Assembly (NCBI RefSeq): GCF_054482525.1 | Contig: NZ_CM137006.1 | Direction: 5' to 3' (one strand) | DNA length: 64,000 bases | Shown: one piece after another, positions 2,690 through 64,000 of the stretch | Numbering within the stretch: the first letter of the stretch is position 1 | Layout of the letters: each line of letters opens with the position of its first letter | Program-made: the position numbers and the translations under genes | The notes under the pieces: model-generated | What the model was told of the DNA's origin: nothing | The model's input: only the letters and a program-made list of their open reading frames with translations | Database searches by the model: none

Positions 2690-4255
2690 TTATGCAGTTT
2701 TGGTGCGAATCAGGTAGTCAAAAGCACTCAGAGAGGCTTTGGCACCTTCGCCAGTGGCGATGATGATCTGCTTGTACGGAACCGTCGTACAGTCACCCGC
2801 TGCGAACACGCCTTTCACGTTGGTTTCGCATTTCGCATCAATGATAATCTCGCCCATGCGGTTACGTTCGACTGCGCCTTCGAGCCAGTTGGTGTTCGGC
2901 AGCAGACCAATCTGCACGAAAATACCGGCCAGTTCGATGTTGTGAATATCGCCGCTGACACGATCTCGATATTCCAGACCAATGACTTTGCTGCCGTCGC
3001 CTTTCACTTCCGTAGTTTGCGCATTCAGAATAATGTCGACGTTTTTCAGGCTGCGCAGTTTGTCCTGCAGAACCTGGTCGGCTTTCATTTCTGGCGCAAA
3101 TTCCAGCAGCGTTACGTGCTCAACGATACCCGCCAGGTCGATTGCCGCTTCCACGCCGGAGTTACCGCCGCCGATAACCGCTACGCGTTTGCCTTTAAAC
3201 AGCGGGCCGTCGCAGTGCGGGCAGTAGGTCACGCCTTTGGTGCGATACTGATCTTCGCCCGGAACGTTCATGTTGCGCCATTTTGCACCGGTCGCCACGA
3301 TAATGCTGCGTGCTTTCAGTACCGCGCCAGAAGCTGTTTCAATCTGATGCAGACCACCTTCAACCGCTGCCGGGATCAGTTTGCTGGCGCTCTGGCTGTC
3401 GATCACATCAACGTCGTATTCATCAACGTGAACTTTCAGCGCTCCTGCCAGCTTCTGCCCTTCAGTCTTCGGTACAGAAATGTAGTTTTCGATATCAACG
3501 GTATCGAGGATCTGACCACCAAAACGTTCGCCCATCAGACCAGTACGGATGCCTTTACGTGCGGAGTAAATTGCTGCCGCTGCACCCGCTGGGCCGGAAC
3601 CGACGATTAATACGTCATAAGCATCACGCTTGTTCAGCTCTTCTGCCGCACGTTTTTCCGCGCCAGTATCAATTTTGGCGACGATTTCAGTCAACGTCAT
3701 GCGACCCTGACCAAACTCTTTCCCGTTTACGAATACTGCCGGAACGCCCATCACGTTGCGATCGGTGATTTCGTTCTGGAAGGTACCTCCGTCAATTGCA
3801 GTGTGCTTGATGCGCGGGTTCAGTACGCTCATCAGGTTCAGCGCCTGCACCACATCCGGGCAGTTGTGGCAAGAGAGCGAGTAATAGGTTTCGAATTCAA
3901 AATCACCGTCAATATGGCGAATCTGCTCCAGCAGAGACTGCGCTTCTTTCGACGGATGACCACCGGTCCACAACAACGCCAGTACCAGCGAGGTAAACTC
4001 GTGGCCCAGCGGGGAACCTGCAAAACGTGGCCCCTGGTTAGAACCTGGGTTGGTGATCAGGAAAGACGGCTTACGCACCGGCAAGCTGTTATCTTCTTTA
4101 AAGGTGACTTTGTCTGACAGTTCTGCGATTTCAGCCAACAGTTCCTTGATTTCTGCCGATTTAGCGCTGTCATCCAGCGTGGCAATTAACTCAACAGGCT
4201 TGGTCAATTTCTCAAGGTAAGCCTTGAGTTGAGTTTTCATATTTGTGTCGAGCAT
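2690..4255 (-). CDS. ahpF: Alkyl hydroperoxide reductase subunit F (flavoprotein disulfide reductase)
   Basis: ORF 2690-4285; start at [17 protein letters not shown] gives 521 aa; paired-cysteine and FAD/NAD motifs (GSGPAG, CPHCDG). Confidence 0.95.
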
Positions 4256-4425
4256 GTTTATCTCCTGGGCTTTAAACATCATCATGCAAGCGGCCTCTGC
4301 GGCTACCTGGATGCAGCTTGCATCATGGTGCGGGGAAGAAAATCGGGTGCCGCAGCACCCGAAGAATTAGGTGAATTTCCGAAGTATTTCGCGCCGGAGT
4401 TGGTAGCGCGAAAGACGAAGGAAAT

Positions 4426-4989
4426 TTAGATTTTACCAACCAGGTCCAGAGACGGAGCCAGAGTTGCTTCACCTTCTTTCCATTTAGCCGGGCAAACTTC
4501 ACCTGGGTGAGAAGCTACGTACTGTGCTGCTTTGATTTTACGCAGCAGGTCAGACGCGTCACGGCCAATGCCTTCAGCAGTAACTTCGATTGCCTGGATG
4601 ATACCCTGCGGGTCAACAACGAAGGTCGCACGGTCAGCCAGACCTTCATCTTCACGCATGTTGTCGAAGTTACGGGTCAGGGCGCCAGTCGGGTCGCCGA
4701 TCATCGCATATTTGATTTTAGCGATGGTTTCAGAGCTGCTGTGCCATGCTTTGTGGGTGAAGTGAGTATCGGTAGATACTGCGTATACGTCTACGCCCAG
4801 TTTCTGCAGTTCTTCGTAGTGGTCAGCAACGTCACCCAGTTCGGTCGGGCATACGAAAGTAAAGTCAGCCGGGTAGAAGAAGAAGACGCTCCAGCGGCCT
4901 TCGGTATCTTTTTCGGTGATTTCGATGAATTCGCCGTTTTTGAATGCCTGGTTTTTAAAAGGTTTAATTTTGGTGTTAATCAAGGACAT
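4426..4989 (-). CDS. ahpC: Alkyl hydroperoxide reductase subunit C (2-Cys peroxiredoxin)
   Basis: 187-aa [24 protein letters not shown]...FTFVCPTE... classical AhpC. Confidence 0.95.
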
Positions 4990-5360
4990 CTATACTTCCT
5001 CCGTGTTTTCGATGAGATGTAAGGTAACCAATTTTTGCCGATTCGGCTAATGCGTTTCCATTATCAAATCGATAAGTTTTACCTTACAACCTTCGTAAGA
5101 CAACTTTGTGAACTTTGCACCGCCAGCGGCGATAAAAAGTAAAATGGCCCCCTTTCCAGGTGACCGTGTAATCTGAACTACCCTTTGGTATCTTCAGCGC
5201 CTGCCTGCAGGCTGAGGTGTTGCCCTTACAAATGCAACAACGACATGGATTACAACACCCTCATAAACAAAGGGCAATCACCTGATCTAAGCTCTTACCT
5301 ATGGCAGTGATAGGTTATGCCTTTTACCCGACTTTTGCACTGACTGAAAAGGACAAATTA

Positions 5361-6107
5361 ATGTTAAAAAAGATACTTTTACTGGCTCTGCTTCCTGCAA
5401 TCGCCTTCGCAGAGGAACTTCCTGATCCAGTAAAAGCGATTGAAAAACAGGGTATTACGATCATCAAAACATTCGATGCTCCCGGAGGAATGAAAGGTTA
5501 TCTCGGAAAGTATCAGGATATGGGCGTCACCATCTACCTGACTCCAGATGGTAAGCACGCTATCTCCGGTTACATGTACAACGAGAAAGGTGAAAACCTG
5601 AGTAACACACTTATCGAAAAAGAAATTTACGCACCAGCCGGACGCGAAATGTGGCAACGGATGGAACAATCCCACTGGCTCCTCGACGGTAAAAAAGACG
5701 CGCCGGTCATTGTCTACGTCTTCGCCGATCCGTTCTGCCCATATTGTAAACAGTTCTGGCAGCAGGCTCGCCCGTGGGTTGATTCTGGCAAAGTGCAATT
5801 AAGAACATTGTTGGTTGGCGTTATCAAGCCAGAAAGCCCGGCGACAGCAGCGGCAATTCTTGCCGCCAAAGATCCCGCAAAAACCTGGCAAGAATATGAA
5901 GCCTCTGGTGGCAAGCTTAAGCTAAACGTGCCTGCAAACGTAAGTACAGAGCAAATGAAAGTGTTAAGCGACAACGAAAAACTGATGGACGATCTGGGGG
6001 CAAATGTCACACCAGCTATCTACTACATGAGTAAGGAAAATACGCTGCAACAGGCCGTGGGGTTGCCCGATCAGAAAACGCTTAATATCATTATGGGGAA
6101 TAAATAA
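5361..6107 (+). CDS. dsbG: Periplasmic thiol:disulfide interchange protein DsbG
   Basis: ORF 5301-6107; start at [17 protein letters not shown] (signal peptide) gives 248 aa; CPYC active site present. Confidence 0.9.
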
Positions 6108-6314
6108 AAGATAATTCATGGATGGTTGAAATATATCCCTGTTTTTCAACCATCCTAAAAAAGCATGAATTGCTCGCTCTGCCCTAAGTGGCTGTGCTAT
6201 TTTAGAAAAACTTAACTCTGAGTTAAGCAAAAAAACATAATACAAATAAATACAACAGCAACATTATTGAACAAATGAATGATTTATAGAAGAGATAATA
6301 TAACGGAGTATGTT

Positions 6315-25424: not shown

Positions 25425-25639
25425 GGGGTATAACCTGAAAATGAGTCCAATAGGGGAAAATCTCCACGGCGCTCACTTTACCAGTTGGTGAGAATTATCC
25501 GAAGCTGAAGTTTGTAAATTCCTTCCACTGAATGCAACATTCACTCTATTTAAGAGAAATATCCACCAAACTTATAAATTAAATAAATGATAAACCCATA
25601 ATCATTTCCTGTAATTATAGGTTTATGGATAATATTAAT

Positions 25640-61915: not shown

Positions 61916-64000
61916 TTATGAGCCAGGATGTGTGCAAACTGCCGAAATAACAGTGACGGCTTGCTGTAAGCTTTGCTTCGGCAATACATAGTGCGCAATG
62001 CAGCGTGAGTTCGCGCCGTCTCCCCACTGAACCAGTAATTCACCAGACAATGGCGCACCGCTTAAATAAACTTGCCCGTCATCACCCACCATACTGGTTA
62101 TTCCGGTACTGTTTTCCCGTACCAGTGATCCAAACGGCACCGGTTTTCCGCCCTGGGTAACGGTAATGAGCGCCCGCACGCCTATGCGGGTATCAAAATT
62201 GGCACGAACCAACGCGCCTTGCGTCGGCACAACGCTGCTAATATTTTTTTCAACATCGATGGAATTCCCCATCGTATTGGTATCAAGCGCGATACGGTTA
62301 TACCGATAAACCGTGGCATACGGCATCACCGCATAGCCGCGCCAGTCGGTTAAAATGCCAGTTTGATTTTCAATGCGTACACCGCCTGCGCCAGGCGCTT
62401 TAATCAAAACATTGGTATCCCCTAAAGGCTGGCTCAGCGTTATGCCATTTTCATGTCCGACCACACCGCCAGACAGCTGCCAGTTAACGTCATGTTGATC
62501 GCGGTCGTAGTTATACCCGACCCCCAGCGTACCGTAAGCGGCCTGCCAGTTTGCCGTGGCGCTGCCCGTATACCCATTATTCGAGGTATCGCCCTGGCTT
62601 ACGTGATAACTCAGGTTGTGGCCTTCCAGTAAGGTCCCACCAACGCCTGCCAGCCAGCTATTTTGCCCGTTGCTGTTACGGTTGGCGTTAAAGGAGGCAT
62701 AAGCGCGGTCGAGCGCATTTTCCCGGGTGTAGCGACGTTTGGTCAGAACATTGAAAGGCACTGAAACATTAAGTCCGACAATACGTTCGTTATCGGGGAT
62801 CCCTACAGATTCATTCCACGAAAATGAGAGTGAATAACTGATGCCAACCCAGCTGCTGGTATACCCCACCTGATACCAGGTATCTGAATCCGAAGTATTC
62901 CAGTATTTTTGATGGGTACCAGAAATATAAAGCGAGCCAAAGTCATTAAGTGATTGTGAAATATTTAACTGTAAACGGTCTTTACGACTAAAGCGTAAAT
63001 TGTGGTAATTCACGATTATCGGTTCATCGCGATGCTCACCGTCATAATCGTAATCATATTCGTACCCCTCCATTCGACGATACGCAACATCATCAAGGGT
63101 ATAAAAACCTTGTGTCGAATAGCGGTAACCCATTAACTGAAAATTGGTGCCGAAAGTGTTCATTGATTTCGCATAGAGGAAGCGAATGGAATCCCCCTCA
63201 TGACGACTGTCGTCGGCTAACTGACTGCGCGCATGCGTTACATCCAGCGACACTGCGCCCCAGTTCCCGAGATTGCGCCCCAGCCCTAATAAAAAGGCGG
63301 TGTAATTGGCAGATAATTGCGTCCCGCCGTAGGCAGTAAATTCCTGTGGTAAACCGCCGAGTGCCGTGCCCTGAAAAAAGAAAGGCGACGATTGCTGACT
63401 ATTACCGCTACGAAAATCGCCCGCCGTCAGGTCAAATTTGAAACGCCCTTCGCGTTGTAAAATCGGCACTGTTGAATACGGAATTGTATAATTCTGCTGA
63501 TTGCCATCGCGCTCGTCGATGGTGACATCCAGATCGCCATTTGAAGATGTCGGGTGCAAATCTGTAATTTCAAAAGCGCCGGGGGAAACATAGCTTTGAT
63601 AGATAATAAAACCATTTTGCCGAATCGTTAGCTGGGCCGCCGTACGGGCAATCCCACGTACCGTTGGGGCAAACCCTTGCTGGCTATCAGGATACATATT
63701 ATCGGAAGAATAAAGCCGTACACCACGAAATCCAACGCCATCGAAAATATCACTTCCTGTATTGCCGTCTCCCATTACCAGTTCACTTTTCAGCGGAATA
63801 ATGGCGCGCTGTACCCAGGTGCCAATATTATTCCACTGTTCTGAATGATATCCATTTCCGCGAAAATAGTTCCAGGAACCATTGTTGCGTAAACGCCACG
63901 GGCCAATATTAATCCCGCTGAGCTCACTAAAAAAATAGCTATCGTTACCATTACCTCTGTTACCGGTGAAATTATAATTCAGGAGTAAAGCAGGAATACC
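61916..64000 (-). CDS. sfmD: Fimbrial outer-membrane usher SfmD (3' part; 5' end beyond window)
   Basis: Open frame running to the window edge; usher family by recollection (FimD-like); C-terminal paired cysteines. Confidence 0.85.

Follow-up and report, generated by a model that had tools for sequence, protein, structure and literature searches.

An inverted repeat between ahpC and ahpF very probably encodes a conserved RNase III hairpin, in a spacer shared with a terminator-type hairpin and an ERIC element

We report that an inverted repeat in the spacer between ahpC and ahpF very probably encodes an RNA hairpin of the ahpCF mRNA that is a substrate of RNase III. The repeat lies in a 64,000-nt stretch of DNA, analyzed here as a whole and called the window. 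Its hairpin, which we name H3, is real, functional and conserved, and was already described in E. coli K-12 in 2017; the element itself therefore brings no new biology. What is new is the sorting of the spacer into three modules, their taxonomic range and the identification of the hairpin that is the likely attenuator. An inverted-repeat finder, folding and a terminator scan resolve the spacer into three hairpins (H1, H2 and H3) rather than one, which we take to be, respectively, an ERIC element that varies, a terminator-type hairpin conserved in structure and an RNase III hairpin conserved in sequence. AhpC and AhpF, two of the most abundant E. coli proteins, form a decamer and a dimer that assemble together, an arrangement that calls for unequal expression from one operon, and H3 would be part of how this inequality arises post-transcriptionally.

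The ahpCF operon is on the minus strand of the window, in a dsbG / ahpC / ahpF / uspG locus of Escherichia type. In E. coli genomes, DNA 100% identical to the ahpC of the window carries the annotation ahpC, and PGAP, on identical E. coli sequences, begins ahpF with the same ATG (MLDT); the ahpC stop at 4426 and the ahpF ATG at 4255 are where a previous reading of this DNA, made from the sequence only, had put them. A 281-nt query that covers the spacer matches 5422 of 5426 complete genomes, and its identity to many E. coli chromosomes is 100%. The features discussed below are, in the order of transcription:

4426-4989, minus strand: ahpC coding sequence, 187 aa, with its TAA stop codon at 4428-4426 (from the list of open reading frames).
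4374-4426, minus strand: H1, an internally deleted ERIC (IRU) element of 53 nt, with arms at 4374-4394 and 4406-4426.
4333-4362, minus strand: H2, a stem-loop UCGGGUGC-UGCG-GCACCCGA (4362-4343) followed by UUUUCUUCCC (4342-4333), found by the terminator scan.
4276-4331, minus strand: H3, an RNA hairpin of ~20 pairs and very probable RNase III substrate, from the repeat finder and folds.
4316-4327, minus strand: core of the H3 5' arm, CAUGAUGCAAGC in the mRNA, with 10/18 columns of the extended arm invariant in 12 genomes.
4293-4314, minus strand: the two conserved pairs 4314:4293 and 4313:4294 and the variable apex that they enclose, from an alignment of 13 orthologues.
4313, minus strand: equivalent of MG1655 position 639695, the point of maximal RNase III-dependent read depletion, placed by an exact 61-nt context match.
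4280-4291, minus strand: core of the H3 3' arm, GCUUGCAUGAUG in the mRNA, with 14/18 columns of the extended arm invariant in 12 genomes.
4262-4266, minus strand: ahpF Shine-Dalgarno sequence AGGAG, read from the sequence and left unpaired by H3 in folds.
2690-4255, minus strand: ahpF coding sequence, 521 aa, with its ATG start codon at 4255-4253.

The inverted repeat that had been noticed in the spacer is confirmed. On the plus strand its arms are CATCATGCAAGC at 4280-4291 and GCTTGCATCATG at 4316-4327, 12 nt each and complementary at 11 of 12 positions, the single mismatch being a G.G on the transcript strand. Between the arm cores lie 24 nt (4292-4315), 16 of which (67%) are G or C, so that the description of this segment as GC-rich stands while the length of ~22 bp given with it does not, a trivial discrepancy from a quoted string that took in 2 nt of arm. 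With its flanks, the repeat extends to 21-nt arms at 4277-4297 and 4310-4330 that are 81% complementary. Folding of the minus-strand transcript, the check suggested at the time, turns 4334-4274 into a hairpin of ~20 pairs at -23.0 kcal/mol (z = -2.55; as good a fold in 2 of 200 shuffles), which is retained in the centroid structure of a 201-nt context. The 20 pairs of the stem, ~two helical turns, are interrupted only by 1x1 mismatches; the base is rich in A/U, carries G.G and C.A mismatches and is followed by the tail UUUAAAG. The base ends 9 nt upstream of the ahpF Shine-Dalgarno sequence and the core of the 3' arm 13 nt upstream, and the folds predict that H3 does not sequester this sequence. 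The 5' arm can also pair with the sequence just 3' of it, as ACCAUGAUGCA-AGC-UGCAUCCAGGU (4305-4329, minus strand; 11-nt arms, 82% complementary), an alternative hairpin that could form first in transcription, ahead of synthesis of the 3' arm, and whose UGCAU segment is nearly invariant across species.

RNase III-dependent depletion of reads at this site, cleavage in vitro and an effect on ahpC half-life are all documented in the literature. Comparing RNA-seq coverage between the wild type and an rnc deletion, Gordon, Cameron and Pfleger (2017; mBio 8:e00128-17, PMC5371410) list an RNase III site, "Intergenic (ahpC-ahpF)", in Table 1 and Table S1 at MG1655 position 639695, a coordinate of limited resolution since the reads, mapped to NC_000913.3, were unstranded 2x100 reads. 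The ratio of delta-rnc to wild-type reads at this position is ~900 in both replicates (3598 versus 4 reads), the second strongest among the new RNase III sites of that study (PMC5371410). The 61-nt context of 639695 is identical to positions 4343-4283 of the window, which places the coordinate at 4313, inside H3 and three nucleotides past the core of its 5' arm. The published site and H3 are thus the same element; the K-12 site has a 127-nt ERIC element upstream and the window's strain one of 53 nt, and nothing essential differs. An in vitro transcript of the ahpFC region was a substrate for purified RNase III (cleavage scored "Y"), and the site was checked by 5' RACE (PMC5371410). The template of this assay spanned H1, H2 and H3, so that localization of the cleavage to H3 rests on the RNA-seq coordinate. 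The half-life of ahpC mRNA is ~14 min in the wild type and ~6 min in delta-rnc while that of ahpF is unchanged, and the authors proposed that cleavage leaves a 3' hairpin on ahpC that blocks exonucleases (PMC5371410). A later review counts ahpC among the positively regulated RNase III targets, with a mechanism that was not elucidated (PMC9032294). The sequence-only reading had offered a processing hairpin as one of two alternatives and had named, as grounds for dropping it, that no processing site maps to the repeat: a published RNase III site does map there, contradicting those grounds, and together with the in vitro cleavage and the half-life effect it supports the processing alternative. 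The literature searched yielded nothing usable on this spacer in the way of Term-seq, Rend-seq, terminator or ahpC-only transcript data, and in the RtcAB paper ahpC appears only as a deletion mutant.

The geometry of H3 is that of an RNase III substrate. Its ~20 pairs over ~two helical turns agree with the length of double strand that Gordon et al. call for, at least 22 nt (PMC5371410), and its stem is as long as double cleavage requires (at least ~20-22 paired positions). An independent report of RNase III sites at nucleotide resolution (Altuvia et al., 2018; PMC6212723) recovers 9/10 Gordon targets and describes an enzyme that tells substrates apart by base-pair identity at defined stem positions; the two positions between its staggered cuts, which leave 2-nt 3' overhangs, are usually paired and include at least one G-C. 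Two such positions can be proposed in H3: pair 4314:4293 (alignment columns 33/60) is GC in 13/13 orthologues and pair 4313:4294 (columns 34/59) is CG in 11/13, and both coincide with the mapped RNase III coordinate. These would be the pairs between the two cuts, and the apex that they enclose would be the excised fragment.

Conservation was assessed on ahpC loci from species-representative genomes, whose spacers were inspected. Across 12 Enterobacteriaceae genomes, 24/36 columns of the H3 arms are invariant and mean pairwise identity is 0.86 and 0.93 in the two arms. In the same 12 genomes, invariant four-fold synonymous sites number 11/80 in ahpC and 8/47 in ahpF (19/127 in total), with identities of 0.63 and 0.60, and the flanking spacer has an identity of 0.56-0.58. 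By this comparison, the H3 arms are under strong purifying selection. The hairpin folds alike in 13/13 orthologues and both its G.G and its C.A mismatches are invariant, and no compensatory double change was found at any of the 13 consensus pairs in these 13 orthologues: one pair alternates between C-G and U-G, five cells of the alignment are broken pairs, and the rare substitutions in the arms break pairs. Comparative support for the structure itself is thus weak, and what is conserved in H3 is the sequence and not the pairing alone. The preference of RNase III for base-pair identity can explain such conservation of sequence rather than pairing. The apex varies freely, E. coli included. In the Klebsiella/Citrobacter-type hairpins the apex forms a mini-stem of its own, UUCAGG-NNN-CCUGAA (loci L008, L093, L106, L154, L162 and L206, the last from K. 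pneumoniae); one lineage has UUCAGA...CCUGAA, with a broken pair, and C. werkmanii (L008) has UUCAGA...UCUGAA, in which it is restored. No other change in the hairpin looks compensatory, and the E. coli form does not have this one.

It is this conservation of the arms that makes H3 more than a chance repeat. Taken as an inverted repeat alone, it is unexceptional and not beyond chance: with 12-nt arms, at most one mismatch and a spacer of 3-40 nt, the window contains 18 inverted repeats, against a mean of 5.2 expected by chance from 10 composition-matched first-order Markov simulations. Other repeats of the same quality are found for instance at 255-286, 1292-1320, 5376-5436, 6119-6156, 25590-25626 and 63791-63838. 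One could see in H3 a chance palindrome, about five of such quality being expected per 64 kb, or a functionless remnant of a mobile repeat (REP- or MITE-like), the adjoining H1 being a true mobile ERIC element with presence/absence polymorphism. We regard this as practically negligible, the arms being far more conserved than synonymous sites and H3 being single-copy: E. coli genomes have it at a median of 1 place, and the window has a single site. H2 and H3 are moreover identical in the five E. coli spacers aligned, K-12 included, while the ERIC element varies. A repeat family was likewise considered for H3 and rejected, since each genome has one copy of the hairpin and this copy is tied to the ahpF context.

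Conservation of the sequence rather than of the pairing would also suit a palindrome acting at the DNA level, bound by a dimeric regulator or belonging to an internal ahpF promoter, and both strands of H3 fold equally well, but as those of any palindrome would. Such a role is exceedingly improbable: the promoter scan finds no sigma-70-like site on the minus strand of the spacer, half-sites 24 bp apart across a spacer that varies from 18 to 30 nt are a poor fit to a dimeric DNA-binding protein, and for an explanation of the element the published RNase III data suffice.

The alternative offered alongside the processing hairpin was an attenuator, and here a distinction between H2 and H3 is needed. 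H2, 12 nt upstream of H3, has an 8-bp stem with 6 G-C pairs, a 4-nt loop and the tail UUUUCUU; it folds at -16.6 kcal/mol (z -4.3; 0/200 shuffles fold as well) and is the only element of the spacer that the terminator scan lists on the mRNA strand. It thereby has the anatomy of an intrinsic terminator, a G+C-rich stem with a short loop and an immediate U-tract, and this anatomy is conserved. H2 folds in 24/24 Enterobacterales spacers with a located core, one further spacer having no recognizable core, and shows compensatory changes at four positions (C-G/U-A; G-C/C-G/A-U; U-A/C-G/G-C; A-U/U-A). It is nearly universal in Enterobacterales, including the ~70-nt spacers of Pantoea, Providencia, Brenneria, Arsenophonus and Erwinia. 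H2 is thus likely a partial terminator and 3' stabilizer of the ahpC mRNA. Because it combines terminator anatomy with compensatory changes, the attenuator role fits H2 rather than H3, and H2 is likely the better candidate for the attenuator that had been proposed.

That H3 itself is an intrinsic terminator stopping some polymerases before ahpF would agree with the presence of a stable hairpin between two cistrons and with the 4-6 U that follow H3 in a few species, such as RIT691 and Leclercia (GUUUUUUAAG). We nonetheless consider it very improbable. The base of H3 is A/U-rich and mismatched, only UUU follows in the window, and the hairpin is absent from the terminator scan and lacks the anatomy just described, so the attenuator alternative fails for the repeat to which it had been attached. 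A canonical terminator-type hairpin conserved with covariation stands 12 nt upstream, and the 3598 reads across the site in delta-rnc imply that many transcripts read through. Among known systems, intra-operon terminators and attenuators that set subunit stoichiometry resemble H2 in anatomy and position, as read from the sequence, and their outcome, more ahpC than ahpF message, is the one that the sequence-only reading had proposed; H3 is unlike them, in that no G+C-rich stem is directly followed by a U-tract.

With H3 as an RNase III substrate and H2 as a putative terminator, the fate of the ahpCF transcript can be outlined, although we infer the precise sites of cleavage, termination at H2, trimming back to it and the consequence for the protein ratio. 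Some polymerases would stop at H2, and the transcripts that read through it would fold H3. RNase III would then cut both strands high in the stem, near 4314:4293 and 4313:4294, removing the apex and uncoupling the two cistrons. The ahpC fragment would be trimmed back to H2, which would shield its 3' end and give a longer-lived ahpC mRNA, and the ahpF fragment would begin ~37 nt before the ATG with an unstructured leader. Processing at H3 and partial termination at H2 may together bring AhpC (a decamer) into excess over AhpF (a dimer).

Such an arrangement is reminiscent of the classical intercistronic RNase III hairpins of phage T7 early mRNA (R1.1, for instance), the rpsO-pnp leader and metY-nusA-infB, which like H3 span ~two turns in a polycistronic RNA and are cut into separately stable products. 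In the T7 paradigm, the 3' hairpin left by cleavage stabilizes the upstream message (PMC9032294). The ahpC signal would differ from the T7 type in that its protective 3' hairpin is, by our reading, the separate and pre-existing H2 and not the cut stem. In pnp, cleavage destabilizes the downstream message, whereas in ahpCF the upstream message is stabilized and the downstream one unaffected (PMC5371410).

Could H3 instead act mainly on translation of ahpF, by hiding, in the uncut mRNA, an A/U-rich standby region (GCUUGCAUGAUGAUGUUU) immediately 5' of the Shine-Dalgarno sequence, which RNase III cleavage would set free to activate translation? The distance from the end of the arm to the ahpF ATG is fixed at 22-24 nt in 65/66 variants of the hairpin (described below), the 3' arm is its most conserved segment (14/18 invariant columns), and there is a precedent in adhE, where RNase III cleavage unmasks the ribosome binding site (as cited in PMC5371410). 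In folds, however, H3 pairs with neither the Shine-Dalgarno sequence nor the start codon, and ahpF mRNA stability is unchanged in delta-rnc. The one helix that encloses the Shine-Dalgarno sequence, 7 bp of AUGUUUA/UAAACAU, appears only in the minimum free energy fold, is absent from the centroid structure and is not conserved in other species, and was rejected. Control of translation is therefore an unlikely main function, though a translational role could add to the stability effect. Two coding readings of the arms were also discarded. A small ORF in the 5' arm (MMQAASR*) shifts in length and frame between species, through an indel at CAAGC-GCAU, and comes without a Shine-Dalgarno sequence. 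In E. coli, three AUGs of the 3' arm share the ahpF reading frame (4256-4285, minus strand), and the ORF lister adds 10 residues to AhpF on their account; in most other species a UAA follows after four codons, and PGAP starts the protein at MLDT.

Coming back to H3 as an RNase III substrate, its invariant mismatches, the lack of compensatory changes and arms far more constrained than synonymous sites suggest that something beyond generic RNase III recognition might read this RNA, be it a protein or small RNA that tunes cleavage or a role of the 3' arm as a leader. We put this forward as a tentative idea that is probably not correct, if less remote than the rival readings discussed above. Under oxidative stress, an additional reader of this kind would tune cleavage and with it the AhpC:AhpF ratio; a freed 3'-arm leader would act in ahpF translation.

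Our findings on taxonomic range, on the absence of covariation and on a separate conserved H2 go beyond the report of Gordon et al. H3 is present in Escherichia, Salmonella (S. enterica), Klebsiella (K. pneumoniae), Raoultella, Citrobacter, Enterobacter, Leclercia and Superficieibacter, and among the spacers compared it is an additional module found only in core Enterobacteriaceae. When metagenomes were scanned with a pattern of the arms, 113 of 120 matches lay directly upstream of an ahpF-type start, the rest being chance matches. Pooled with the genome loci, the metagenome matches yield 66 unique variants, which are 60-67 nt long and have medians of 21 pairs and -22.3 for dG; the arms of the metagenome set are fixed by the search pattern, and it therefore says nothing of arm conservation or covariation.

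Spacers with and without H3 also differ slightly in the sequence that follows H2, as in E. coli (UUUUCUU) and Arsenophonus, which lacks H3 (UUUUUUU). The longest uninterrupted T run after the H2 stem averages 3.6 where H3 is present and 5.3 where it is absent (p = 0.044), a weak signal from spacers L005-L025 and L046, with runs anchored at the stem, an uncorrected p value and species that are not independent. The total T count after the stem does not differ between species with and without H3 (p = 0.53). Core Enterobacteriaceae could have inserted the H3 module after an ancestral terminator, with a later weakening of that terminator's U-run. If so, the insertion of H3 shifted the uncoupling of the two cistrons from termination towards processing.

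The first base of the third hairpin, H1, is also the last of the ahpC stop codon; the hairpin folds at a dG of -19.8 (z -6.35). E. coli spacers come in three length forms, and every difference between them lies within H1. The K-12 allele carries 74 extra nt internally, for 127 nt in all (K-12 locus L004, 160-286), and this insert matches the ERIC-PCR primers ERIC1R at 20/22 positions and ERIC2 at 21/22, in the expected arrangement. The H1 of the window has the same ends as the K-12 allele and a 74-nt internal deletion, and a third E. coli allele is 42 nt shorter than that of the window, with almost none of the ERIC element left. Since the K-12 insert matches both primers, H1 can be assigned by sequence to the ERIC elements, with an internal deletion in the window's strain. 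In Salmonella, Raoultella, Citrobacter werkmanii and others this place is taken by full ERIC copies, and in K. pneumoniae and RIT691 by different GC-rich palindromes instead. H1 thus behaves as ERIC / IRU repeats do, being an ERIC copy with presence, absence and internal-deletion alleles; H3 is unlike them: it has a single copy, is fixed in the spacers examined and occurs nowhere but upstream of ahpF.

A scan of 3900-5400 against Rfam (E <= 10) placed no family on the spacer, and weak matches to SNORD98 and Mu-gpT-DE were dismissed as noise. Outside the spacer, the scan returned a match to the enterobacterial small RNA family STnc70 at 5134-5227 on the minus strand (44.1 bits, for a gathering score of 40; E = 3e-7). 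The match lies in the divergent intergenic region between dsbG and ahpC, 145-238 nt upstream of the ahpC start, and spans model positions 1-149 in only 94 nt.
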